A stretch of 64,000 nt of DNA from Lingula anatina (taxonomy: Eukaryota > Animalia > Brachiopoda): positions 3,720,001 through 3,784,000 of the forward strand of contig CM120647.1 in the NCBI GenBank assembly GCA_051362555.1, given 5' to 3'. The position numbers and the translations under genes are program-made. Of the stretch, positions 5,152-63,400 are shown one piece after another (position 1 is the first letter of the stretch; each line of letters starts with the position of its first letter). The notes below the pieces were generated by a model, which saw nothing but the letters and a program-made list of their open reading frames with translations, was not told the origin of the DNA and made no database searches.

Positions 5152-8100
5152 ATGAAGCGATGTTTTTGTTTGGTAATTCTCTTAGTACTACTACTACAAA
5201 ATGTTTAAATCCCAGCTTTCGAATTTCTTTTTTGTGTATGTAAACTAAGGTCAGGAAGAGCATTGGATGTTTCTCAATTTGTCATTTGATGATAGGTGGA
5301 TAAAGACATCGTATCGGCCGTTAAGTATTTATCAGACAAGTTTAACGCTCAATTTCAGATTTCTGCGTTGATATCCGCAAATTGGTAATAACCAATCAGA
5401 AGTCGCGCTTTGGCCTGGGAACGGTTTCTCCTTGAACTCTGCGTTTGTAATCTCCTCTTCACTTCTACTTCCAGATTCCGATACATTTGATAAAGTGGAA
5501 CATATGTCAGAATGATATACCTGCCTGTAAGATATTTCCTTGATACATTTTTTTCCTGTGGCCTAGAATGAAGTTAAACAAGTTATCCTTTCCAGATGGT
5601 TTGTTGAGAAACTGTTTCAAGTGCGGGTTTTTATTATTTTTTTGAGTTAACCTATAATTTGTTGGAGTGGGTTGTAATTTTATGACCTGAAAAGGGGTTT
5701 GCATTACTAGTCAGGTATAAGCACAGGATATACATGTGTATAGGAAAAATAGGGAAGGCTTAAGCGGATAAACATCCCACGAAATGTCATTTTGTGTCTC
5801 CTTGATCTAAACCGACTTAAAAAAAATGACATACAAATTAAACGAATTGGACAAACTCAAGTATGATGTTCAAAATTTAGCCGATAACGGCACTGTTTAT
5901 TGAAAGTCTCTCTGATGAAAGAAATGAACGCCAAACTTCCCTTTAACCAGATTGACTTTAACATGAGGCCAAGCAGCTATAATCAATAGCTCAAAACAAG
6001 TTAATTGGTTTAGGTATCCGTATGGGGTTTTCTGTCCTCAGACCATTGCCCTTACTAACATATTATCCTTAACCAATCCACTTTGATCTAGCCACTCGAC
6101 TGCCCTCAGGTTCCACCCTGCCTACTCCGTCCCGCAGCTGCCATCTGCTATGCCACCCCCTATTACCTCCCCTGTAATGTACTAATTCTTAAAATCCTTT
6201 TTATTTATCATTATGAAACTGTTTTTCTTGTGTCCATCATCAATAGATATGTATTAGTCAATCGGTTATATGGTTTGGTTCTCTTAAGATGAGCATTTAA
6301 TGCTTAAAGCGATTTGCCATCTTCATACGTACATATATACTATTATATAATTCTCATGAACTACAAAATATGTTTAAAAAAAAACATTCCACTACTTGAA
6401 AAGAGGCGTACCAATTGCACATCTATGTATTCATGTCTCAGTTATGAGATTGATTTAGTCCCAGTGGGCCAGAAACATTTGACCGGCCTGACCGCGGCGC
6501 CATATCACATCATCGTGATCGATACCCGGTCGATAATCGCAAGGACCTTTGTTGAACTCAATACCCAAGCGTGCCGACCTATGGCCCCTTGCTTCTGAAA
6601 CCGAATTGCTACATAAAAGTACGGTGAATAATTACACATCCGGGGTATTTCCATTCGTATTAGCTGTAATAAAGAATATCCAAGAACATATTTCAGTGAA
6701 GTATATATGTAGTGGCCACCCGGAGACATAAACCATAAATATCTGAATCATGACATCATTGTAATGGTAATATGACGTCAATGTGACGTATCCAGGTCGA
6801 AGTGACAACTTGTACGTACCTGTTGGTAGGTACGCACAAGCTCTAGTTATATACCATACTATTTTCCGTATACATTTTAAACAATCAAAAGAGGGATAAA
6901 ATGGCTAAAACATTCTTGGCGCAATTATGTACATGGAAATGTCAAATCCATCATGCGCTATGACTTCTCAATTACCTAAATAGAACCAGTGACTGAAACA
7001 ATATATTGACCATCGGAATCCTATCTCTTGTTGCCGCAGATATTTCATTACTTTGGACATCAAAGATACTGGCGTCGTTATTGATTATCTTTCAGAATAT
7101 TTTCATTACTGTTATAAATCATTCCATACACCTTTCATTTTACAAAACTGGGTTTTAGTAGCGAATGAGTAGAAGCAAAAGTCAACCTGTCCTGCGGGAT
7201 CTATTGCGCTGTATTTGGTGTTACATTTGCCCACATCAATTTAGGTTCAGAAATAAAAAAAAAATCATGTCTGGTGGTTGATATTAAAGCGAAAAAGATG
7301 CACAAGTGTATGTGCTGTCAAATAAAGCATTTCAGCTCAGCTCTTGTTATTCTATACTGGCCTCTGCACTGACGGGTACAAAGTTTTTTTTTTACCAGAG
7401 TATAATTCCACAGTTCTCATCGTGAAATGATGCCATCAGCACTTAGTAGATGTTTGTCGTTACAAATATCCAGCGCAGCGCAATTAAGCAGGGATACTAA
7501 ATTCATCTGCTTTATGTTTCTTCTCCAGGACTAGTATCTGTCAATACATAATAAGCTTCAGAAACAAATTTCATCAATTGTCGAACTTTATTATAGTGCA
7601 AAGAAGGAATTTGAAATTGACGATGCATGAACTACATCGTACCATGAAGTCAGTTAATATAACCATTTTGTACCAGCTCCAAAAGATGAACGATTAAAAA
7701 AATAATTCAACGAAGGGAATAACCTGGAAAGAAGATATCTCATAGCCCGAGTCATTCCGCTGAAGGTTTACCGCAAATGTCGAAATATGCAAATTGGAAT
7801 CTGTTTTGCTCGAATTTCTTGAAAATTTTGTTTAGTCTTAAAACGGCCCTGAATTCAACGGAACTAGGTATGGCCTTGGTTTCAATTCATCCGACAAAAA
7901 TTGCCCCCGAAACGCCATCGTTTCCTCTCCATATTGACTTCAGTGGCTGGGATGAAGTCAGAGCAGGCAGGGTTTACCGCTTTTTGCCAATCCCGGTGTG
8001 ACAGGAATGGAAGTCTGGGGTCCCATATAATTAGTACAGGTTAGGGTTAGTCGTAGTATCGGGGCTAGTATATGGGACGAATGTTACCTGTACAAAGTAA

Positions 8101-23112: not shown

Positions 23113-23369
23113 TTAAGATGTTTAAATGATCATCTATTAAGGATGCTCACATGGAGAAAAAAGACTGTCAAATGTAAATGAGCTGCAAATGTACTTATCA
23201 ACTTTCAATTCTCCACAGGAAAAAAAACAGGTTATATTCGTTACAGTTTGCCGTGGCAACCATTACGTTTACACTAAAGGAACATTTTCTCCGTTGAATC
23301 AAACGATCGAAATCGAATATTCCATCTTGCCATATTTAAAACCCATTAATGTTCTTTATGTCCTTCCAG

Positions 23370-23460
23370 ATTTGTCACCGTTGTAGCCTGCCTGTTGTTG
23401 AGTGTCCTTGAAACTGTTCCCAGGTACCGCGTCATGATCAGTCAGTTATTGTTCTTTTTG
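23370..23460 (+). CDS. KCNQ: KCNQ exon: S1 and S1-S2 loop ([30 protein letters not shown])
   Basis: ccttccag acceptor, gtaagt donor, 91 nt; resembles KCNQ S1 (FLLVFSCLVLSVFSTI); ends in phase 0, matching the next exon. Confidence 0.9.
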
Positions 23461-27300: not shown

Positions 27301-30300
27301 ATATTGGCTGACAGACAGTTATGCACATTTTACATTTGTAGACATCCTTTTGGCATCAATATATCGTTGGATGTTATGATTATTCTTATTTATTGTCAGG
27401 GAAAGCAACACATGTTCTGTTTTGACAACTGCTTGTGGCTGAATTTCCATTCTCGGGAAGAGGCATTGCCTAAACCGGATAAGATCACGAATGCTCAGTA
27501 TTTCTCCTAACCGTGGTCTAATCTACAACTGCATTAAAACTCACCACCTGTCTAAGACCCGAGAAAGCTGCTTTCAAAATACGAGAAAGATTATTACAAT
27601 TTTCTCATTACGTTGCGCAACAACGAGACGCTCTAAATGATAGAGTACCGGAATACCAGAGAGTTCTAAACGGAACGCGCGTTTCCTCCTTGAAGGAAGC
27701 GTCACCCTTGAACTCCATGACGCACGTAGCAGTATCTAGTCTCCGGCAAGACGTAAAGGTCACTTTGCAAGAAACTATTGGTCTTTTTTTCCTTCAGTTG
27801 GCTGTCTTTGATTGTGGTTTCAGTAAAAATGCTCATCTCGCATATTTCGACGTAAAATGCAATACCGGAAAACCAGGCACGCCTTCTGCGCGCTGCTGCA
27901 CCGTTTGGACGCCGTTCTACGGATAACGATTGCCGTAAGTTACCACGGTCTTTTCTCCCATTCATTTTCATCAATTTTTATGCTACGTCCTTGGCATCTG
28001 CAGTAGGTATAACGTTCAAGGCGCATTGCCACACATTTTATGGGTGTTATGCAATTTACGGAATCCTTGCCATTATCTGTTCTAAAGGTTATGAGACTAT
28101 AGACGTGTTTTACGATTCCGTCTTATGGTGTCAGTTATTGCAATAAGTCACCAATAACTTAGTGGAAAACTTCTACGTACTTACGAACCGGGTGGGCATT
28201 CATATACCGGTACCTGCGTTCGAAGTGCGTGCGTGTGTGTATGTGTGTGTGTGTGTGTGTTTGTGTGTGTGTACTAGTACCTGTAACCTGTATATACTGT
28301 ATGGTATGAGACTAATATATTAGTTAGCAAATCAATACATTGGGCTTAAACCTGTTTTTATAAAGCAAAAGGACTACACTTATTTCTTCGTAATGCAGTA
28401 TGAATGTTACCTATATGTATGCCATTATAATTACACGTAAGTGATCAGTTTGCAGTGTGCCCATAAGTTGTATGTGTGTGTATGTGTCTGGTGTTAAATT
28501 GCTTTGTAATTAAATTAAGTACAAACCGCAGCAACATGGATTAGTTTCCTTCATTATTACATATAAACTTATTTGCAGCTACATGACTTGATATAACACG
28601 AACAAAACATATAAAAGTTATATAATATGTGATACGTACGGGTTTGCTATACGCTTACATGCCTGTTCAAAGTACCAGTAGACAAAGCTATATATTTTAA
28701 CAATCTCATATCCACAGTTGGTTCCAATTGGCAAATGGCCCAGGCGGCTTGCCAGCCTACACGTACCTGTATTTGAATCACAACCGTGGCATACCACTCC
28801 ACAATTGCTTGGCATACAGTGTGGCTGTGGAATAGTTGGGCCGATCAGAGACTATACCGGTTGCCATGGCGATATTAATGCTCTTCATTATTTTCATCAT
28901 GGCCGTTTGTATGCAGGAGGCGGAGATGAAACCCCCCTTCGTCTCTTGCCAAGAAAAAAGGCCTCAGGACATCGGGCTTACAGAAGAATAAATATGTCCC
29001 ATACGTACCACACCTTGTAAAATATTCATGACAGTATGTTGAAGAGATCGTATTATCTCTCTCCTTAGATTTCCTAGGCCCGACAGAGTTTGTCTGGCAT
29101 TTTCTCAACCTTTTCTCAGAAATGTACCAGTATATCAACATTGAAACTTGACTCTTTTTTTTTTCTTTCTAGGAACTGATAACGACTCTATACATCGCCG
29201 TGTTGGTCCTGATATTCTCCGCCTTCTTTGTATATCTCGTGGAAAAAGACAACAATCCAAAGTTTGAAACCTATGCAAACGCCCTCTGGTGGGCTGTGGT
29301 AAGTCACGTGATTACACTGACGATTTTTGGCACTATGTACAAGTGCAGAAGAAGTGTTGTGAAGAAGGTTTTTCATGATCAACATAGGATTGTATGCTTG
29401 ACTAAGAGACTATAAAAACGGAAAATACTAAAATAATTGTTATATGATATATAGGGGGCCTACGCAAGTATCTATCTATCTATCTATCTATCTATCATTA
29501 TTATTATCCATCTTCATTATTTACCTACATACCTTACAATAGCAACGTAAATTAATGAAATCTGAATCAAGGGTAAATATGGACGCTTCAATATCCTGCA
29601 AATAGTTTCAATATCCTCCATACCGTAAATGTTCTCATTAGTTTTTATACCAAGCACAATATAAATGTAATGTATGTACTACACTGGTGGACATACAAAA
29701 CGGTAGAGTTGATAGACATATGGATTACATTCCGCAGTAAATACGCCTAATTGCCTTGATCAGGCCTTATAAACGGATTAAGCGTTTACTAACACTACCC
29801 GCATATCTTTTAGCATTAACACCCATGTTAACTACATGACCCACAAATTAACCGGCACTACCAGAGCGGAGGAATGTTAGTACTAGGTATCGATTTGTTG
29901 GTGCGAAATAATAGTACGGTGCGTTGGTTAATTCGTGGGTTTTGTTATTTCTATGGACGTTACTGCTAAAAGAATTTACGGGTAGTGTAAGTAAACGCCT
30001 AATCCGTTTATAAGGCCTGTTGGTTATTATGTCTTTTTTTTCCAGATCACACTATGCACGGTAGGGTACGGTGACACGGTTCCAGAGTCCTGGGCGGGGA
30101 AATTAATAGCGGCCGTGTGCGCCATGAGTGGAATAGCGTTCTTTGCCTTACCTGCAGTGAGTATAGAACTCCAATAAACATATTTAGATCCCATTCTTAC
30201 ACCTATATCGATCTAGCAGGATCGACCCATATCCGAGGGGTTTCTCGCTAAATTACATTCAGCTTAAGCAGCTCTGATGTGTATTAGACCTACTGAAGCT

Positions 30301-33300
30301 GTTAGGGGGTAATTAACTATCGTTTAGCAGCTTCAGTAGGCGTGCCATGCATCTAAGCCGCTTATTCTGAATGCAATTTAGCGAGAATCCCCTCGGAGAT
30401 GGGTCGATCCTGCTAGATCGATCTAGGTACAGGAATGGGGTCTTATATGCCAAGCATATGACCCATGTTATATAAAGCCGTAGATTATTTTTTTAATTTG
30501 GTCATATTATATGGAGCTTGAAAGTAAACGCATCGTCATCCGATGTTCATGTTGGAAGCGTGTTTTTTTTTACCAAATACGGTTTGTTATTCTGAAAAGG
30601 TTTTTAAATTTGATAGAGATGGTGTGTCATATTCCTTTCCCTTATATTACACATTTGAAATAATGGAGGCGCCTTTTCTAAAATCAATGCACTATGCTAT
30701 GATACCGTCGCATTAAAGTTGTTATAAAGACATACTGTGAGCACCCGGCCTATATATATACTTAAGAACAATTCCTGTTCCTGTAATTATGACGGATGTT
30801 AAGACAGAAATGGGAGTTAGGGACAGTTTCAAGTGTGGGATGGTATTTCTGGAAAATCGAGTTAAAAGATCGCAAATTGTCAATGATATTGAATATGCTG
30901 TACGTACCTTGGGATTACTGGAAATGATGACATTTCCATATTTCTTTTTATTATTTAAAGCGTAATGTGTGCACTTAAATGTATAAACGAGCACATACTG
31001 TCCTCCATGTACTCACGAATCCTGATAACGCGAGTATTGTCCTCATCATACATGTATATCGATGACGTGTTCAGCTACACGTGCCTGCATATATCATTGA
31101 TTTCCTTTAATAATATTTATAACTGTGTTGCTGATGGCAAACAATGGCTCTCTGTGTTAATTCCTCGTATTTCCAGTTGTCATCACATTCATAATTATTC
31201 AACGATTGCATTTATCGAGGAATAAGGCACAATCAGTGCGTTTTATCAGATTACCAACACATTCGTGTATTCGGCTACTGTTTTTTTATATACAACAGTG
31301 TTAACCTATAAAGGGTGCGCGCTATAAAACTATTTAGCTGTACAGATAAATATTTGGTGATTCTGTTGGATTTCATACAGCGATTATGATATTTCTGGGA
31401 CGACTGTGTGCGCCGAAGTCATGGTCGTAAGCGCGTGCGTATGGGCTACCATTTTATTGCATATCTCTCGAAAATTACAAACTCTTTCTCAGTCACACAG
31501 AACTTATATATATAAATAAAAATAACCGCTGTGAAAGTTCACGAACTCACATTTCTGGTTTAACACAGGGTATTCTAGGTTCAGGATTTGCTTTGAAAGT
31601 GCACGAACAGCAGAGACAGAAGCACCACAGCAGACGACAGATCCCAGCCTCGGTTCTGATTCAGGCAGTATGGCGGTGCTATGCAGCAGACGAGCACTCC
31701 ACTTCCCAAGCCACCTGGAAGATCCACCTACGACCCCATCCTAGCCCCATCTCGTATGTAGACATTCTAAAGCGGACAATAGAAAAATTGAAAGCAATAG
31801 CCCTTTGGCTACTTCGCACATTTAGAAGTGGCTTGAAGTGATGCAAGTAGTGACCTTGACCTCATCTAATATGACCTTGACCTTGCAGTGATGCGTATAT
31901 GACCCTGACCTAGCCTCGGTCGTGCTTTTGCTTTGCTACTCGTATAGGGGCCCTCTATCCGTATGATATGTGAATGCTGATGTTCTTGGAAGTGCTAAAT
32001 GTTTTCTTTCTAATATTCATAAGTAAATTAACATTGTTTTCTTTCTAATATTCATTAAGTAAATTAACATTTTATTAGGTGTGGGCAAACATATCTTTCC
32101 GATGCTTAAAATAGCACAGTAAAAATAACTTTATTAGTAAAATTACATTTTTGGTTTAAAACCTGAATACGTAAGAGGTCTTTATCAGCTTTCACATATT
32201 AAATAGAAAGAGGGTCCCCAACCAGCGCTATTGCCTCTACTCAGTCGCTCTCTCTACACATATATACATATTACGTAACCACGCTTGCTTGTTGTAGGTT
32301 TTCCAGGTACCGGCTTAGAAGCAGCCATCACGCCCGGCAGTGGATCTATTATAATATACATCTTTTTATCATAAGTGTTGTGATCACCGCATATAACTAT
32401 AGTCACGCTTATCATCCACCGTTTCATATTCGTTTGTCGCTTGCTCTGCATTTCTGCCACTTTCTCTCTCGTAGGGCATCTTAGGTTCCGGCTTTGCTCT
32501 CAAGGTGCACGAGCAACAGCGCCAGAAGCACCAAATCCGGAGACGGATCCCCGCAGCCTTCCTGATACAAAGTATTTGGCGGTGCTACGCTGCCGACGAG
32601 AGTTCTTGTTCGTTGGCGACTTGGAAAGTCAACGTGGAACCCCCGAAACCGCCAAGCCCCCAGGCGTATGTTCGTTGTCAGTAGTAACTGTAGAGTCATG
32701 ATGCGGATGACGTTGGTGTGGCGTCATTGTTCTAGCTTCCGGTTTTGATTCCTGGTTCTTGGTTCCGTTTCGTATCTAGAGCATCCCTGGCACTGACGCC
32801 ATTTTGCTTTATGTCTTTGCCCTTCTTATTGTTGTCCGTGTTTCAACATCCCACCACCTTCCCGCCGCTTCTTCTTCCCCAAAGAATTAATCCTCCACTT
32901 TCTATCTGATATTGATACGGACCCTTCCTGACGCCTTCCCTGTCAAATCTGTATTACAATCTTTTCTATGTCTGTTCTATATTTATTATAGTTTGCATGT
33001 GTGCTTTATCGGGATTGTTTCCAGTTATTTATTCTTATGCCATTTTCATTGGTTATTGATACACCGTTTGGATATATTCTTTGAAAGCAAGTTTTGCGAC
33101 ATGGCATTTATTTCCAGCTGCGTATTTTAATTAAACACCTAACAGTTTGATCAGTTAACATACATACATTCGACCAAAATAGGTTGGAATCATGCAATTA
33201 TTTTTTCAATTAAAAAAAAAAAACTATGTTAATTATTGGGAAAATATTCAGTGTATATAAAAAAGTAAAGAATGGTGGATGCATTATCACTCAATATTCG

Positions 33301-36300
33301 GTTAAATACTTAACTCATATGGTAATTTAATAATTATTCAAAATAACAGTTTCCGATTGTATTTGGCCGAGTGTATTTTCAACTAATTTTATTTCAGCCT
33401 ATAGTCAGCGGTGTTTGCTTTTCGAGCTTGAACTCAGTTTGGGAAAGTTAGATAGTTTGATTTGCAGCTTTGCCAGACGCCTTTGCATTTTCAAAAAAGA
33501 GAGAACTTTTTCATATTATTAAACAATGCGTTGCAGCACTGTTATTTTTTTTTTTGGAAATCGTATTTTTTTATTTAACATGATTTGCCAATAATTAAGT
33601 GTTAATTAATTTGATTAAATATTCACTTTAACAGGTATAAATGTGTTAAGTTTTACCATTGGCACTTTATCTTTCGCTTGACTATTGATCTGATCATTTT
33701 AAGGGTGTGCATGTAGTACTATTATTCTTACCTAACTATAACGGTGTAATTATTCGGAATATGAAACCTGTATACTATTTTTTTAGATTAATATGATCTT
33801 CTAAAATTTCCTTCTTGTCATCTTAGTCTTTGTTTAAAATCAAAGTATGAGTATTGAACCGTATATACCCATAATATTAATGCACTCCATTATGTATTCG
33901 AAATTGCCGCAAAGATCTTTTGTATCGTATGTGTATACGCCACCTACTGTTTTATCAGGGAAAAGTCGTCTTTTGTAAGTCGGCTGTCAACAATACGCCG
34001 AAAGGACCGCAGTCAAAGCGAGCGCCCCATCCTCCATCGTTCCCAGAGTCCTACGTCACCCAACCCGTCACCGTTGATCTCCAGACACTTCAGTTTTAAA
34101 CTCAGAAATAGTGACAGGGAAAACGACTCCACGGAGGCTTTAAACAGGTAGGAGAAGCCACTTTCACTTTCGTTTTTGTCTGTATGTACGGTTATATGCA
34201 TATACTGTACAGGTAAAGGTAAATTCTATATTTATACAGTAACATTTATATTGTTCTTTGCTGCTTTAGTATTCCAAAAACTACCAACAAGGCAAGACTG
34301 ATATGCTTTTGGTCGCGTTCATTAGTTTGTCTTGTCAGGTAAAGTAGGACAATATTGTATATAAGCATTGTTATTGTCAAATGTACATATTTTGTGGAAA
34401 CTCAAAGAATATGCATATATATATATATATATATTGTTATGCACAGCTTTTGACATGATCTCAGCAAATCGCTAGACTCGAAACAAAGTGTAGAACACCA
34501 GGCTATATTGGCACGCTTACGTTAAGGTGTAAGCCAGCTTTTCACATTTCAGGATTGCACTTTATCTGAAGATATTGTAATCTTTTTGCGTCATGCTTTT
34601 TGACAACTATTGTAATCAGTAATTACATTCTGAGTAGTAACAATGGTCCTATTTCCGTTCTCGCTATACAGTCTAATAAACAGGACTTGGTAAGGCATAT
34701 ACCGGGGGTGGTCTTGTGCATGTGTTCTTTTGTGAATCCTTTTTTTTTCTGTCAAACCTCACAGAATACTAAATTGCTGTTATTGAAATTTAACTTGATA
34801 GATTCATCGACACAATGTTTATTAACACGTGTATTTATTGATTTTATTGATCTGAAGAGGGTGCGATTTGATGCTGATGTAATGCTCAAGGGATATGCAG
34901 TTCCGATCATTTGAGTTCACAAATTAGGCAGTGGCACATCTTGGTAAATCAAAGATGTTCAATTTGCATATAAAGGTGTTCAGCAATGTAGAAAAGTGTA
35001 TCTTGTGGATGGTACATTTACCATCAGCCACTAGTAAAGAAAAAAACCTTTGAAGTGAACCGTAAAGCCAACTGACCGTGGTCAAAGATTGGCCAAAGGA
35101 TATATACCCCTGAGCATTACGTGGGGTGAAATTGGTGCAGTTTGTGTGTCATTGATAACGTGACGACACCATTGAATCATGGGGCTTGTAACAGCGCATG
35201 CTTGGTGTTTCTACACACATTTAAAAAATATGGGCGTGTAATATATTTTCCCAGACAGCACACGTACAGTGTAGACGAGCATGGAGGATTTCCCAAAACT
35301 TTGTCCATAATTCTTCTAAACTTTTAGATCAAAAATGTGGTCTACCTAGTTCAAGAGAAATCCAGAGAATTCCACTTACCTATTTCTTGGTTCAACATGA
35401 ATAAACAGTGCAACATTCCATTTGATTGAACGATTGTTGATTTTTATCACGTAAAAATAAACTGTAATTTCAATTTTAATGTTAACACAAACTTTTTGGC
35501 TATTTTCCCCTAAAATTGGTCAATGGGGCCGTGGCACTATTTGTTTTGACGAAATAGCCCTATGGGTCAATTCCAGATGGAAATAAAACGGCATTTACTA
35601 AATAAAATCCAAGTAAACCCGCCAAATTTGGACCCACGTGGAAATCACCGCAAGGTCCACCTTGGGGTCCAGCATTGGCCCAAGACGGGTCTGTGAAGAG
35701 TGCGCTGGCAGGGTCGTTGAAAAAGGGCTCACAGAAATGGGTGCATTTTAAATCTATGACAAACAAAACTGAGTCACATGCCTGTTATATACCCCATGAA
35801 TGAATGGGAAGCCGTCTAACAACACTACTGCAGTGTCTGCATGGTTACTGCATAGCTGCATGAGTTCTTCTTGCATGTGTTATGCTGATATGTTGCATGG
35901 TCTGAAATAATGTGTTGTTGAGGTTGTCTTATATTGTGATAATGGGTGGTCTTTTTTATTGGCTTTTATGTTTAATAATTGTAGTGCATGCTACCATGGC
36001 ACTAATGGAAGGGTATATTGTATTTGGATAGTTCTAAAATTGATAGTTCTACAGGTAATAATTATGAGAACGTTTATTTTGATATACCGACCTCCCCTAG
36101 GGATTACTTTACATTAATTTTCCCGCCAGATGGAGACACTTTTAGGATAAGAAGGCAGCATGACCCTAAGGACTAGGGAAAATCTCAGTAAAGACCCCAA
36201 ATATCGTAATGAATATTGGAAATTGATATAGCCAGCTTTATGTAGTATATACATTTTGAACGTTTTTTCAACTGTTTGGTGGATGAGTTTGGGTCATTCC

Positions 36301-42300: not shown

Positions 42301-43307
42301 ATCGCACACGGTCCAACAGTTGTTTATGGCTAATAAATGTTATTAAAAGTAAATTAAAACTTCCACGACTGATTTACATGTACTTTTGTGTTTGAATTCT
42401 CTAGGTTGATGATATAGAATCTAAACTGGACCAACTCATAGAGATGTACGAGAGCGACAGGACGTGCCAGCAAGGAAAGCCGTCATGCGGAGGGTGCCCC
42501 TCTCCAAACAGCCCGCGCCCTGTCCCTCCCGCACCCCCGCCCTCGCCGCGGTCACCTCCCACACGGAACGGGGCGACATCTAACGGCGAGGTTAAACTCA
42601 AGTCAATTTTAGTCGATAAAGATAAGCAGACTAAAGACAGGTTAACAGTTCAAAATCACCATGGCAACCCAGGGAGGAATCCCAAAAGACCAATGCAAAA
42701 ACATTTGTCGGATTTAGGACCCAGATACAAAAAGAGAGTGACGCTAGTTCATAACGGATCCGAGTCCTCAATGGCCGAGGAAGCGGCGGTAACGGAAAAG
42801 GCCGAACCTATCCGGAGGACGACGAGTTTGCCAGCGACGTCAAACGCACGTGATCTGTCAATGGAAATGATGATGGACTTCAAGGGGTCTGAAAAACGGA
42901 ACTCCCTGCCGGGGCCCCAGCAGCATAGTCATCTTCCTAGCGTGGATATTGTGAAAGAGAACTTTAAAGGGAATAACCCCCATCGCGTTTCTACCAACTC
43001 CATTTCAAATAATCACCTAGGAAAACAAAAACGAATGAATAGTGTTCTTGTGGAGATGGAGGAAGAAATCGAACCATGTGAAACTGACAAGTTATTAAGT
43101 GACCCAGATGTAGATAATTCTTTCGATAGCCCTAGAAATGACGATGTCGTTTTACAAATGACCGAAAGTGATTCGGACAATGGATTAACGTTTTCATTTA
43201 ATGGTTCCAACGATACAAGGATCAGTTCTTCGCTTCCAAATCATTTACCAGAGTCTGAACCCCTTCTTCAAGGTTCCGATGAGATAGACGTGAAGATACT
43301 AGTATGA
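23370..43307 (+). CDS. KCNQ: KCNQ/Kv7 voltage-gated potassium channel alpha subunit, 5'-partial. Join 23370-23460, 24695-24821, 25506-25678, 29173-29298, 30046-30156, [31569-31753 OR 32475-32665], 33959-34147, 40390-40463, 41173-41377, 41723-41819, 42405-43307; about 760 codons in window
   Basis: All introns are GT-AG with matching phases. The translation gives S1-S6, S4 [18 protein letters not shown], filter TVGYGD, S6 [19 protein letters not shown] helix A, helix [15 protein letters not shown] and helix [12 protein letters not shown]. Confidence 0.97.
24311..24348. repeat. (CA)n microsatellite
   Basis: Directly visible. Confidence 0.97.
24695..24821 (+). CDS. KCNQ: KCNQ exon: S2 and S2-S3 linker ([42 protein letters not shown])
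   Basis: cttccag acceptor, gtgaat donor, 127 nt; EY.LR.WS.GCRS.Y.G..GRLRF.R.P motif. Confidence 0.96.
25506..25678 (+). CDS. KCNQ: KCNQ exon: S3, S4 voltage sensor and S4-S5 linker
   Basis: ttttccag acceptor, gtgagg donor; [58 protein letters not shown]. Confidence 0.97.
25877..26142. repeat. 38-bp minisatellite, 7 copies, with a 114-bp higher-order unit
   Basis: Unit acaacatctacatgtagcttacaccaccacacaaaaat; the variant order in copies 2-4 recurs in copies 5-7. Confidence 0.95.
29173..29298 (+). CDS. KCNQ: KCNQ exon: S5, turret and pore helix
   Basis: Poly-T tract plus ag acceptor, gtaagt donor; [42 protein letters not shown]. Confidence 0.97.
29761..30019. mobile_element. Palindromic MITE (CAGG...CCTG ends) just upstream of the pore exon
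   Basis: caggccttataaacggattaagcgtttactaacactaccc pairs with gggtagtgtaagtaaacgcctaatccgtttataaggcctg; the arms extend about 95 bp; no clear TSD. Confidence 0.85.
30046..30156 (+). CDS. KCNQ: KCNQ exon: selectivity filter and S6
   Basis: tttttccag acceptor, gtgagt donor; [37 protein letters not shown] (not in the ORF track). Confidence 0.97.
30187..30442. mobile_element. Palindromic Tourist-like MITE just downstream of the pore exon
   Basis: tta|gatcccattc...atcgatctagcaggatcgaccca ... tgggtcgatcctgctagatcgat...gaatggggtc|tta; TTA TSD. Confidence 0.88.
31569..31753 (+). CDS. KCNQ: KCNQ alternative exon A: distal S6, pre-helix A and IQ helix A
   Basis: ttaacacag acceptor, gtatgt donor, 185 nt (phase 0 to 2); [62 protein letters not shown]. 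Confidence 0.95.
32475..32665 (+). CDS. KCNQ: KCNQ alternative exon B, a paralogous copy of exon A
   Basis: tttctctctcgtag acceptor, gtatgt donor, 191 nt (phase 0 to 2); [64 protein letters not shown], no stops. Confidence 0.93.
33959..34147 (+). CDS. KCNQ: KCNQ exon: helix A-B linker ([38 protein letters not shown]...)
   Basis: ttttatcag acceptor, gtagga donor, 189 nt (phase 2 to 2); SFV.RL.TIRR resembles my recollection of the Drosophila KCNQ linker. Confidence 0.88.
37267..37501. mobile_element. Tc1/mariner-like MITE
   Basis: TIRs cacactggacaatagacgtgtcacccct / aggggtgacacttctattgtccagtgtg; TA on the left flank only. Confidence 0.72.
40390..40463 (+). CDS. KCNQ: KCNQ linker exon ([24 protein letters not shown])
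   Basis: gttttctag acceptor, gtaggg donor; its phase 2 to 1 bridges the phase-2 end at 34147 and the phase-1 start at 41173. Confidence 0.8.
41173..41377 (+). CDS. KCNQ: KCNQ exon: helices B and C
   Basis: atttcag acceptor, gtaggt donor; [53 protein letters not shown]. Confidence 0.97.
41723..41819 (+). CDS. KCNQ: KCNQ exon: helix C-D region ([32 protein letters not shown])
   Basis: gtcttccag acceptor, gtatgc donor, 97 nt (phase 2 to 0). Confidence 0.95.
42405..43307 (+). CDS. KCNQ: KCNQ last coding exon: helix D coiled coil plus long low-complexity tail ending KILV
   Basis: ttctctag acceptor; [16 protein letters not shown] continues in frame into ORF 42444-43307 and a TGA stop. Confidence 0.93.
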   Translation, partial: VDDIESKLDQLIEMYESDRTCQQGKPSCGGCPSPNSPRPVPPAPPPSPRSPPTRNGATSNGEVKLKSILVDKDKQTKDRLTVQNHHGNPGRNPKRPMQKHLSDLGPRYKKRVTLVHNGSESSMAEEAAVTEKAEPIRRTTSLPATSNARDLSMEMMMDFKGSEKRNSLPGPQQHSHLPSVDIVKENFKGNNPHRVSTNSISNNHLGKQKRMNSVLVEMEEEIEPCETDKLLSDPDVDNSFDSPRNDDVVLQMTESDSDNGLTFSFNGSNDTRISSSLPNHLPESEPLLQGSDEIDVKILV

Positions 43308-57400: not shown

Positions 57401-60400
57401 AATTGCTCAACTCCGTTCAACACAACTTTCCAAAATTATTCTGTCTGTTTGCACCATGCAGCTCAGTTAAGTCTCATTGACCTTTATCCTCACTGTCATC
57501 ACAGTACTGCGTGACCCAGATCTGTTGCTTCATTTTTGCGTATTGAGGTGAGGTTTACTTAAACGCTTTTTTACTACTAATAAATTGTTTTTATAATTTT
57601 TTAAATGACAGGGATAGATTAAGACATACCTCTTGTATATAGATTGAGAGCTGAATCTTCAAAATACGAGAAATGGATTTGTTTGTGTCTAATATCCTTT
57701 AAATAAAAAGTAAAATGCAATTTAACCCAGCCGATCGCGTTTATGTTTATGTTTTTGACCACTAGACGTCCGACGGCATTATTCCAAGATAAGCTTATGT
57801 TTTACTGTTGCTTTGAAGTTGTATTGAAGTTAAATTAATCAATAAAGTTCAAAAACAAACTTTGTTTATGTTTTGACTGATCTTTATTGTTGATTAACGA
57901 TCGTTCTCGTCTGAAAGAGGCGATAAAACGTCATGTTTTGTGGAACTTTAGACATTTTACACCTCCTTTTCTTGAAGAGTTTCTCGTGTGCGTCGACTAC
58001 GGTAAGCACGCCAAGCTAAGACGTGAGATTCTTTGTGAAACACTTCTTGTCGACTGCAGCGTAGTCGACCTAGCTAGGTCACTCAGCTTGAGTTAGTCAA
58101 CTACGGATTTAAGATTCTTTGTGAACCGGGGGCCAAGCATGTTTGACATATGCAGGTTCAGAAGAATGCCTTTTTTCGGCAATTTAACGTATCCTGTCGC
58201 CATCGCTGGCTCTGCAATGGTTATTTGATTATAAGAAACCAAAATGTTTACAGGAACTAGAAGCGAAGGCCTTTGTTTAGGCGTTGACCATTTATCTGAC
58301 CACAGCAACCATTACAGGGACGCATTCATGATTTTAATAACTTTTTTGGATGTGAAAAATGCTTCTGGCATTAAGCTGTGCATCACATTTGTCTTATGCA
58401 CGGCAAGATTTCAACTCAAAATTATAAGGTGGTGGGAAAGAGTGATTGTGGTGAGGGTCCTAGTATTCTAAAGCCCGTAACATTCTGAATAATTTATTCT
58501 TATTGTAAATTCGCAAAGACTTGCTCTATGGGCAATTTTATTATAACTGTTGTTTATTATTATAAATGCTATTATTAGTACCTGTTCGTCCAAATAAGCT
58601 GGGGTGCGACATGAATCTATAGATGCATGTCGCATCTGAGAGTCAAAGCTGAGTGTCGCAGTTTGTAAAAATCCAAAAAAGTTTGATGAAATCCCTCTAC
58701 TTAATATTTTCCATTTCAAATAATAACATGTTTTATGTACGCTATTTCCACAGCCGTCAATTCTTTGACAGCAGTGAGTAGTTAGGGCTAAGCGTAGGGT
58801 ATTTTTTCAGTTGTCTTTTAGAGACAACGCCAGTCATTCCATGTTGTCATCTAATGGCCAAGTCATTTCAGTCACAGCTAAGTCATGTTGTTTTTAGAGA
58901 CAATGTCAGTCATTCCATTTTCAACAGTTGTCATCTAATGAGCACGGCATTTCAGTCATAGCTAAGTGTTGTTGTCATTGAGAGACAACGTCAGTTATTC
59001 CGTATTGTCATCTAAATACCACGGGATTTCAGTCGTAGCTAAGTCACGTTTTCTTTTAGAGACAACGTCAGTCATTCCATGTTGTCATCTAATGACCACG
59101 TCATTCCAGTCATGCTTCAGGCATGTAATTTATTTAGGGATAACATGATAATTTGTTGCGATAGTATACGGGGGAGAGATTTAACCGTATTCATCTTAAG
59201 TTTTAAGTCCGTTTACGGGCGGGCGGTTTTACGGCAACAATGTGCTATGTTTGGCTATGGACGGACAAGGTCGGCAGATTTTACTTTTGTACTTTTTCAG
59301 TTCAGTGTGTCCATCCGGAAGAGTCGAGTGGATGCCAGCCGACTGTAACCTTAGAAACGGAGACGTGGTGAAGATTGTCCAAACCCTGCCACGGGACGTA
59401 AGGCCGTAGCGGGCCGATCCCTTACGGTGCTTCCCTGCGAATCCCCCGTCCCCGATCATGCGAGTTCGGAGATTTCACACGGAACAGACGGTGCTCAGGG
59501 AGTGGAAAATGTGGGATGTGGGATGTGATATGCGAAGATTAATCTTGGGCCTATAAAATAGATAGGGCCTACCCGTCAGTATAAACTTTAAAATCTGGAA
59601 GACACAGAAGACGGTCTCAATCCGCCCCTGCTTTCGGTGCCCACGATCACTGGTCCCGAGTCAAAGGGGTTTACCGCCGCCAAGATCTCCACTAATTGGT
59701 TTGAAGGCATATCGGCGATCCCCCTCACCCTCGTCACTGGTGAGCGGGAAGATTGTCAGTATTGAGTTGGTATCACTTGACCCGCACCCTAGCGTATTTC
59801 TGGTAGAGAGTATCGCCGCATCCACATCAGAGCTGGTGAAATGGAATAGGGCTGTCGGGAGAGGGTGCACACCGAGAGCTGACTTGGATTCTCCTAGCGA
59901 CTGCGGCCGTGCGATGTGGTATGAACTTCCTACCTTGAGGACAACATCTTGAGAGAATTGCAGAACGGACAACACCACAGAGGTAAGTGACATTAAGAAA
60001 AAAAAACGTGTTTGAGCCCTTTGGCGGTGAATGCTGAGATCATTTCTTGATCACTTCACTATTAGCCGTCGGGTTCGTCGCCAGCCACGATGCTACCATA
60101 AGATGACTACGTACGATAACCCATAGGAAGAGATACGCGATCTTCGGGAACCGCGGCGCTAGTGGATGCCAGCCGACTGTAACCTTAGAAACGGAGACGT
60201 GGTGAAGATTGTCCAACCCCTGCCACGGGACGTAAGGCCGTAGCGGGCCGATCCCTTACGGTGCTTCCCTGCGAATCCCCCGTCCCCGCCCATGCGAGTT
60301 CGGAGATTTCACACGGAACAGACGGTGCTCAGGGAGTGGAAAATGTGGGATGTGGGATGTGATATGCGAAGATTAATCTTGGGCCTATAAAATAGATAGG

Positions 60401-63400
60401 GCCTACCCATCAGTATAAACTTTAAAATCTGGAAGACACAGAAGACGGTCTCAATCCGCCCCTGCTTTCGGTGCCCACGATCACTGGTCCCGAGTCAAAG
60501 GGGTTTACCGCCGCCAAGATCTCCACTAATTGGTTTGAAGGCATATCGGCGATCCCCCTCACCCTCGTCACTGGTGAGCGGGAAGATTGTCAGTATTGAG
60601 TTGGTATCACTTGACCCGCACCCTAGCGTATTTCTGGTAGAGAGTATCGCCGCATCCACATCAGAGCTGGTGAAATGGAATAGGGCTGTCGGGAGAGGGT
60701 GCACACCGAGAGCTGACTTGGATTCTCCTAGCGACTGCGGCCGTGCGATGTGGTATGAACTTCCTACCTTGAGGACAACATCTTGAGAGAATTGCAGAAC
60801 GGACAACACCACAGAGGTAAGTGACATTAAGAAAAAAAACGTGTTTGAGCCCTTTGGCGGTGAATGCTGAGATCATTTCTTGATCACTTCACTATTAGCC
60901 GTCGGGTTCGTCGCCAGCCACGATGCTACCATAAGATGACTACGTACGATAACCCATAGGAAGAGATACGCGATCTTCGGGAACCGCGGCGCTACCCATA
61001 AGATAACTACGCAAGCCACGACGCTATACCATAAGATTACTACGTACGATAACCCATACGAGAAGATACACGATCTATGGGAACCGAAGCTCTACCCTTG
61101 GGATAACTACGCAAACCACGACGCTACCAAAGGACGACCCAGAGAACGTCGTCACGTGCAACATTTGAAATTTATGAACTTTAATGACCTTAAGTATGTC
61201 AAAGGATACTTGGAAATTCATGAACTATTTTGGCCATAAGTCTCGTTTATATTACATGAATTTTCGTATTAAATGTTTGGAGTTTTAATGATTATATTGG
61301 AAATGTAATACGTGTCTTTTTATTTCCGAAGGTTTGGGATAAACTTTCCCCAAGGTACAGGTAACATCATTCCCGCACCGCGTCAGGGTGTCCTCGCCGA
61401 CTCGAGGTGGACGGCCGCGTCGCGTTACAATACTATTAAAAAGAGCACATAGCACCTTACAAGTAACATGAGCACCACTTCACGGGAAAATACTGAGTGA
61501 CAAAATCAAATGATACTTACATGACGATACAGGTAAAAACTCGTCATGTTTACTTTGACAAAACATGCATGATATCCTCCGTTCATTTTCATCTCCCATT
61601 CGCCAGGTTGGCGCTTGCTCACTTGACATTCATTAGGAGGAGGATGGAACTTTATGTGATTCGACCCCAGGGCAGTTCTTCGACAGGAGTATGCATAGTA
61701 AAATGGGCCATTTGATGACAGCAACGGGGATCTGTACTCAACAACAGTGTCATTTATTATCGTACCATTAGGATTATCAGAAACAAGTAGTTTTTGGGGA
61801 TGACCGTTTGCGCCTAGACTCTGCAAAAAAATAAATCCCGTAGCGTTTGGACAATACGTTCTGAGACAAGCCACACCATCCTGTCCCGTACTTCTTGATG
61901 TATAACCGACCCAGTTGCCGGTTGTTTCGCTTTTGGTAAGAATGTAGGCCGTTACTCCAGATAAGCCATCTGACATGGATAAATCGGTGTAGGCGCGTAT
62001 TTTGACGTCGCATTGCACCGTGTTTGGCTCTCGTCTATCTAGATTGTAGTATCTAGTTAGTTTGTCAGAAACAGGTAGCTTTGCAACGATAAAGGATCTT
62101 GACAGAAGTTTCCTTGAAGTAAAATTACTAGAAGCCGTTTCACCCATCGTCAGAGGACCCACATCTACCCATGACCCAGTTTCATCGTCCAGCCTCCACA
62201 AAGAAACATCTGGTTGACCGTCACTTCCTAAGGTCACATTGACCTTCTCAGGGTCAAGAAGCAGTTCTGGAGGATTTGAGAAATAGAGAGGATCGCGGTT
62301 AGACGCTTCCACACTGACAGAAAATGTGCCAAAGGTACGTAAAGGCTCCCGCTCTCCTTCATCGTTGGTTGAAACAAATTCCCCTGGGGTTGTGGTCAGA
62401 GCATCCATGTCTCTTAGATCCTGAAATGCCAGCACAAGCTGCGCATCCCCGTCATGTGGGTTGCCATCTTTGTCGATTAAAGATTGTTTGCCAATTTTTA
62501 TTGTTCCGATTGGATCACTTTCGGAACCATTTACAGTAAACTCTTGACTTTCACTGCTGTTGAACAGCACTGGTGCCGGTCTAAGCGGAATTCGAACACT
62601 TTGGGAAACCACTCTGCCTGGTTGATAGCGCAGGATCTTAACAGTTGTTAATAGGTCTCGGAAATATAGATCTTCTATTTTGACCGACAGGACATCTGTG
62701 TTATCTGGGACGCGGAAATTAAACTTTCCTTTATCATCTGTACTCGCCAGCTGTTCCCCTTTAAATGAAATGATACCATACCGCAACGGAACAACTGTTG
62801 TTCCAGATAAGCCGTAAATTTTGCCCCTGACGAACGCAACGATATTTTCTTTCTTACAGTCGGCGCAAGCACAAGACGTTGTTTTATAGACTTCATACGT
62901 TGTACCCTCAGAGCAAGTTATGGTTAAGGATTCTGTGGTGTTGGACTGGCAGCAGAAAGAGGTCACTACGTGGTCAGAACAGGCTCCCTCCACGGTGGCG
63001 TTGGCTGGCCTGATACACGTTTGCGGCTCGCAGCCCCCAATGTCAACAGTGTTCTCCTGCACACCAGTTACATTGTTTTGATAGAAGCATCCTTCTGGTA
63101 ATTGGAGCAGGCTGGTCTTGAGATGCTTGGAACACATCTCGACGTCTAATTCTGCAATGTAAGAAACGCAGGCACTTTGAGGGTGTTTTCATCGTGCTCA
63201 ACAGGGCAATTATATTCTTGCAAAGGTTCCACATTGCAGGGCATTCTAATCAGTTGTACCCCGTACCTGAACTCGAATAATGGCAGAGCTACAGTAAAAA
63301 ATGAGAAAGAGAGCACATACCGTTGACTGACAAATGTCCTCCTTTGGACAAAGACTTCCCTGACAAGGATATAGCTTGGCACTGGTACGTTCCTTCATCA

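Follow-up and report, generated by a model that had tools for sequence, protein, structure and literature searches.

The DNA analysed here is a stretch of 64,000 nucleotides from the brachiopod Lingula anatina (positions 3,720,001 to 3,784,000 of contig CM120647.1, assembly GCA_051362555.1), referred to below as the window. It hosts a gene that encodes a KCNQ2-5-like channel. The gene is assigned to this type because the ion transport (PF00520) and KCNQ C-terminal (PF03520) Pfam domains score above cut-off in the channel proteins P0121 and P0208, and because 55 residues align without gaps to human KCNQ5, the best solved relative, the alignment to KCNQ1 being gapped. The KCNQ2-5 register before helix A and the IQxxWR motif are both present.

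Two homologous exons, called A and B, lie in tandem within the gene, on the forward strand as all other features of the pair. The upstream shared exon (30046..30156) encodes the pore loop and the first half of S6, and ends with a phase-0 donor. Exon A (31569..31753, 185 nt) encodes the end of S6, helix A and the following segment; exon B (32475..32665, 191 nt) is its homologous alternative. The downstream shared exon (33959..34147), which is covered by RNA reads, has a phase-2 acceptor and encodes the helix A-B linker. A and B both run from phase 0 to phase 2, have a length of 3n+2, feature AG acceptors and GTATGT donors, and lack internal stops. They are 721 nt apart and 68% identical over 168 nt, and the introns flanking them are unrelated in sequence. 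Exon coordinates, splice sites, phases and spacing agree to the base with those given in an initial annotation of the sequence. Hairpin repeat elements flank the pore exon (30186-30443 and about 29740-30020); their 119-nt arms are 82% complementary, and they draw many partly matching RNA reads.

Joining the upstream exon, either A or B, and the downstream exon gives in each case an open reading frame. Inclusion of both A and B leads to a stop codon at 32482..32484, and skipping of both shifts the frame into a stop located inside exon 33959; the rule that only one of the two exons may be included, put forward in the initial annotation, holds therefore on both sides. This frame lock needs no special origin, because every duplicate of a 3n+2 exon has one. 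It was probably inherited from a single ancestral exon, since in many single-copy metagenome loci the translation pattern at the exon end suggests the same phase-2 donor.

Exon A matches at 100% the L. anatina protein XP_013420009.1. The cluster to which this protein belongs includes four isoforms predicted by RefSeq: isoform X4 (XP_013420009.1) carries A, isoforms X1, X2 and X3 carry B, and none of the four carries both. All four proteins map onto the window exactly at the A and B splice sites, and the predicted isoforms contain all four joints. RefSeq predicted models generally rest on RNA-seq joints. The earlier proposal, that a single gene yields two isoforms according to which copy of an old duplicate is spliced in, is thus matched by all four models, each using A or B, and by reads covering both exons.

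The RefSeq models differ from each other also elsewhere. A cassette microexon of 18 nt (34672-34689), located in the helix A-B linker, is found in isoforms X1, X3 and X4 and is skipped in X2; a similar peptide is present in the Mya protein P0059 and absent from P0122, a relative discussed below. Isoforms X1, X2 and X4 start at 23434, within an exon (23365-23460) in which the alignment with S1-S2 of relatives continues further upstream, and look truncated at the N-terminus. Isoform X3 starts from an internal exon (27857-27934), and would be without S1-S4. The N-terminal exon of the channel gene was not found in the 64-kb window. One residue near the C-terminus (43215-43217) differs from all four RefSeq proteins.

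Nine raw-read RNA runs were retrieved by species label. Seven were aligned (runs X2 and X3 were left out), using 6-30% of each, and splice joints were listed only if supported by at least three reads. The initial annotation had indicated four joints as diagnostic of the pair. Of these, the joint from the upstream exon to A (30156-31569) is found in 4 reads, one from run X7 and three from run X9; the other three, namely the joints into and out of B and that from A to 33959, fall below the three-read threshold in the seven runs at the fraction sampled. At this low depth neither of the unproductive joints, 31753-32475 and 30156-33959, reaches the threshold in any of the seven runs. The joint leading into the upstream exon (29297-30045) is present in the reads.

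Exon A is covered in six of the seven runs, and run X1 covers neither exon. B is covered in runs X7, X8 and X9, and has no coverage in X1, X4, X5 and X6. The six runs that cover A belong to two studies. In study P2 the share of B in the A+B depth is 0 (runs X4, X5 and X6, with about 1240, 300 and 700 letters on A, respectively); in study P3 it is 0.62 in X7, 0.39 in X8 and 0.30 in X9. The contrast amounts to a handful of fragments, and may come from a difference in tissue, stage, library or population. In runs X7 and X9 reads are found also within the intron preceding B, so part of the B coverage is unspliced RNA; in run X8, B coverage is confined to the exon bins. Both exons are transcribed and A is spliced to the upstream exon; splicing into and out of B is predicted in the annotation. 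Reads of study P3 differ from the window at many positions. Eighteen exonic differences were listed; the 15 examined are synonymous without exception, including the pair that falls in A, and none is listed in B.

Residues 1-19 are identical in A and B, and 10 of the 19 codons differ synonymously, as claimed in the initial annotation. Over codons 1-56, as well as in the sub-ranges 1-51 and 20-51, pS is 0.81-0.92, hence saturated, and pN is 0.13-0.18. These values agree with an old duplication whose two copies have remained under constraint, and bear out the earlier suggestion of purifying selection on both.

It might be argued that A is the only working exon today, B being a seldom used copy, or one in decay, that an annotation pipeline took up. 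The B joints below threshold in seven runs, the three P2 runs that cover A but not B, and the finding of no B-type exon elsewhere in protein searches all point that way. B is however an open exon, present in three of the four RefSeq isoforms, in which synonymous divergence is saturated and replacement divergence is low. It keeps Arg24 and Ile21, the common residues at these positions, and in run X8 its coverage is restricted to the exon bins. A decaying B is accordingly regarded as very unlikely. The notion that A and B are an assembly artefact, that is two alleles or paralogues set in tandem, finds a possible precedent in Saccoglossus, where an older gene model has a near-identical tandem copy at this same exon and a newer one has not. 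Allelic differences in the reads are in contrast few synonymous changes per exon, far below the saturated divergence of A and B. The flanking introns are unrelated, reads of run X9 traverse the intron before B, and the same runs contain reads of both exons, all of which makes an artefact extremely improbable. We hold with high confidence that both exons are functional and used either-or.

The Saccoglossus case (XP_006820358.1, P0001) is the only two-copy protein among 290. The tandem copies include the first 32 residues of the segment and differ at one residue, and the newer model (P0210) has a single copy; the second copy in P0001 is either an artefact or an independent duplicate. The initial annotation had suggested looking for the pair in other bilaterians by translated searches. 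In the best 80 of 142 metagenome loci from other animals, one exon copy was found in all 80, and the pair in none. Most of these loci are short; in about a dozen the neighbouring exons can be seen on both sides (23 by a loose filter), and several loci derive from the same species. No lingulid intron was found among the metagenome loci. B-type exons were found in no other organism in protein searches, in which clustering at 90% can hide isoforms, as it does for Lingula. The duplication looks lineage-restricted, and is seemingly confined to the Lingula lineage. Loci L015, L026, L028, L029, L030, L040 and similar ones carry distinct versions of the exon on short contigs from apparently related samples; these are either paralogous genes or separate exons.

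The relative protein P0122 has an A-like exon, and shares His20, Ser21 and Gln24 with A. In a channel tree made without this exon, P0122 is placed beside Lingula (100/99), at deep distance. The exon tree unites A, B and P0122 in a single group (95/92), within which A and P0122 are joined (89/87, below the threshold of the tool). A clade made of A and B has a p-AU of 0.198, and is thus compatible with the exon data. By these comparisons the duplication postdates the divergence from molluscs and annelids, and it possibly occurred before Lingula and P0122 separated.

The two exons differ at 14 of positions 1-56 (20, 21, 24, 28, 29, 33, 34, 43, 45, 47 and 52-55). Identical in both are the final part of S6 and all basic residues through position 19, a segment where the gate and the best-known contacts with PIP2 reside, as well as L30, I31, Q32, W35 and R36. 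Basic residues in positions 10-26 are five in A and six in B. The claim that the two isoforms differ in calmodulin and PIP2 regulation is weakened by these identities: two isoforms are predicted, but gate, basic residues 1-19 and IQxxWR core are the same, and differences start at residue 20. The exons would provide the same gate and the same calmodulin core, and tuning would take place at the start of helix A and after it.

Position 24 corresponds to residue 333 of KCNQ2 (position 1 is residue 310, and 310+23 gives 333, with no net gap over 43 residues). Among 259 segments in KCNQ2-5 register, 245 have Arg at this position and 12 have Lys; the two with Gln are A and P0122. With the human KCNQ2 variant R333Q, current falls by about 80% and about 50% of surface expression is lost, and calmodulin binding stays unchanged (PMC6161613). 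Exon A has the same Gln at the aligned position; R333Q is however a disease-associated change in the human channel, whereas in Lingula the Gln occurs naturally, as one of 14 differences between the exons. From the effect of R333Q and from the shared calmodulin core, the contrast between A and B would likely lie more in surface expression or in the size of the current than in calmodulin binding, an extrapolation across distant proteins. That the two exons make a measurable difference to the channel is considered somewhat more likely than not.

How one of the two exons is chosen has been addressed by looking for complementary sequences in the introns. A candidate docking site, D1 (30795..30827, 33 nt), is located in the upstream intron; energy calculations predict its pairing with the acceptor region of A or, alternatively, with that of B. 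The predicted selector of A (31536..31567; -26.9 kcal/mol with D1) extends over the pyrimidine tract as far as the AG. The predicted selector of B (32433..32457; -24.8 to -28.6 kcal/mol depending on the segment folded) covers the upstream part of the pyrimidine tract. The two selectors keep one shared octamer, at 31550 and 32449, respectively, the complement of which is found in D1; in the intron sequence next to them no more than 6 nt are shared. Unrelated acceptor pairs share at least 8 nt in 3 of 45 cases.

D1 was first noticed via an inverted repeat and pairing tests were carried out afterwards, hence post hoc, and two docking layouts were tried. The weaker pairing of D1 (-24.8 kcal/mol) was reached in none of 60 dinucleotide shuffles, the best of which, at -19.1, is 5.7 kcal/mol short. 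Among 30-mers taken at steps of 3 on both strands of the window (128 kb), D1 is the best dual partner of the two acceptors (-24.0 versus -20.8 kcal/mol for the next). In the same type of scan it is the top partner of the A acceptor alone, and is absent from the top 14 single partners of B, of which it is a modest partner. When 12 of the gene's acceptors were ranked as partners of D1, A and B took the first two places; of the remaining ten, three were offset by 1-2 nt. A single partner of equal strength exists for one further acceptor, that at 30046. None of 45 other acceptor pairs reaches -20 kcal/mol (best -18.1, 6.7 short). Strand and intron are those expected for a docking site, a space of about 1.4 of the 128 kb. 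In these predictions, the dual complementarity of D1 to both acceptor regions exceeds chance, with the proviso of a site found post hoc.

Other candidates did not stand comparison. The downstream docking layout was rejected, since 22 of 60 shuffles reach its pairing. A weak candidate in the A-B intron, D2 (31824..31861), could pair with the B acceptor region (-29.8 kcal/mol when a wide segment is folded); it ranks 13th in the window-wide 30-mer scan for B, which is not significant, and was discarded as a docking site. The same intron includes a predicted 35-bp hairpin (31946-32219, -47 kcal/mol) which encloses a short internal duplication, and may be either a repeat element or a splicing element. 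An Rfam search returned one weak match (E 0.6), which was set aside.

Pairing of D1 with the A acceptor would hide A and let B be used; pairing with the B acceptor region would hide B and let A be used. The selector was likely copied together with the exon. An activating logic is also possible by analogy to Dscam, since D1 lies upstream of both exons and the last 17 nt before B are left free. Exclusivity for steric reasons, or for incompatibility of U2 and U12 sites, requires a very short distance from the donor of A to the branch point of B, or mixed spliceosome types. Both were rejected: the intron is 721 nt long, the AG-free zone before B is only 70 nt, and a branch-like motif is found at -81; all sites are GT-AG, with an identical donor hexamer. 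Transcripts with a premature stop codon are targeted by nonsense-mediated decay, which would likely remove the products of double inclusion and of double skipping.

Decay may be all that is needed. In such a case the pair would be functional, exclusivity would result from the frame lock, decay and ordinary splicing factors, and D1 would be a chance or repeat-derived complement. Double inclusion and double skipping both introduce premature stops, and nonsense-mediated decay, listed among exclusivity mechanisms, is said to suffice for a two-exon 3n+2 cluster in PMC6071210. D1 was found post hoc, its core resembles two stretches of the window, at 8000 and 40572, which have the look of repeat-element ends, pyrimidine tracts readily find partners in purine-rich sequence, and D1 is predicted to fold also locally. 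Against this, D1 ranks first in the whole window and falls on the right strand and in the right intron, and both shuffles and other acceptor pairs fall short of it by several kcal/mol, as reported above. An explanation by decay without D1 is considered a serious possibility, though we would not bet on it. Taken by itself, a contribution of D1 pairing to the choice between A and B appears evenly balanced between yes and no. The complete picture, in which tandem duplicates are locked by frame, D1 selects by masking one acceptor, wrong products decay and the channel is tuned, is the one towards which we lean slightly. A more extended version, in which the duplication predates the split of Lingula and P0122, and constitutes a lophophorate Kv7 switch between a normal helix A and one with the natural counterpart of the human epilepsy variant KCNQ2 R333Q, thrown by D1 masking in a tissue- or stage-dependent way (B being absent in study P2 and at 30-62% of exon coverage in P3), is unlikely.

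Competing pairings have been described at human ATE1 exons 7a and 7b, where the alternative structures R1R3 and R3R4 hinder one 3' splice site at a time, as assayed by compensatory mutations (PMC7797038). Similar regions just upstream of both exons, and one site complementary to both, are found also in Lingula; R3 is however located between the exons and was tested by mutation, whereas D1 lies upstream of both and is predicted. In the docking site/selector model of Dscam exon 6, the proposed origin is the duplication of one hairpin arm (PMC6071210). Lingula shares with Dscam a docking site upstream of the cluster and a selector before each exon, plausibly duplicated with it. It differs in having two exons only, with a frame lock; moreover pairing activates the exon in Dscam, whereas the A selector overlaps the pyrimidine tract, a position suggestive of masking.

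Ion channels are enriched in tandemly duplicated either-or exons, which evolved on multiple occasions, and in Drosophila Cacophony a duplicated exon in the Ca-beta-binding helix keeps the contact residues and varies the rest (PMC9741552). The Lingula pair is similarly an old tandem duplicate, used either-or, in a cytoplasmic helix binding an auxiliary protein, with contacts kept and flanks changed. Unlike Cacophony, it is located in Kv7 S6/helix A and is seemingly confined to the Lingula lineage. The mouse Kcnq4 variants v1-v4 reportedly differ in the linker that follows helix A, and do not derive from a duplicated S6/helix A exon. Their splicing alters Kv7 expression and electrical properties (PMC10018040). 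A predicted frame-locked either-or pair is known in human KCNQ2 as MXE cluster 1817 (frame 2-0, 124 and 133 nt; PMC5740500). It resembles the Lingula pair in being frame-locked and in a KCNQ gene, but concerns a different, more distal C-terminal exon.

KCNQ genes are absent from the available parts of the text and supplement of PMC9741552, and of the supplement of PMC8373072; nothing relevant is contained in those of PMC9579139 and bioRxiv 10.1101/2025.09.21.677649. No paper on an either-or pair at S6/helix A was found in a literature search covering mostly open-access papers. As to novelty, which the initial annotation had made subject to a check, the exon pair is already annotated by prediction in RefSeq and apparently undescribed in the literature. 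New here are the candidate docking site D1 and the natural R333Q-like residue; knowledge of Kv7 gating is unchanged. The pair adds Kv7 S6/helix A to the ion-channel regions that independently gained either-or duplicated exons. It also offers a natural pair of helices A in one channel background, useful to probe the helix A periphery (trafficking versus calmodulin/PIP2 coupling), the Gln at the R333 position included. D1, if real, would be a compact brachiopod case of competing RNA structures originated by duplication of a hairpin arm.

Elsewhere in the window, a 560-codon open frame with CILP-like domains is found on the reverse strand (61509-63188). Two near-identical stretches, 834 nt apart, are located at about 59200-60870, and feature the same open frames at 59410/60244 and 59566/60400.
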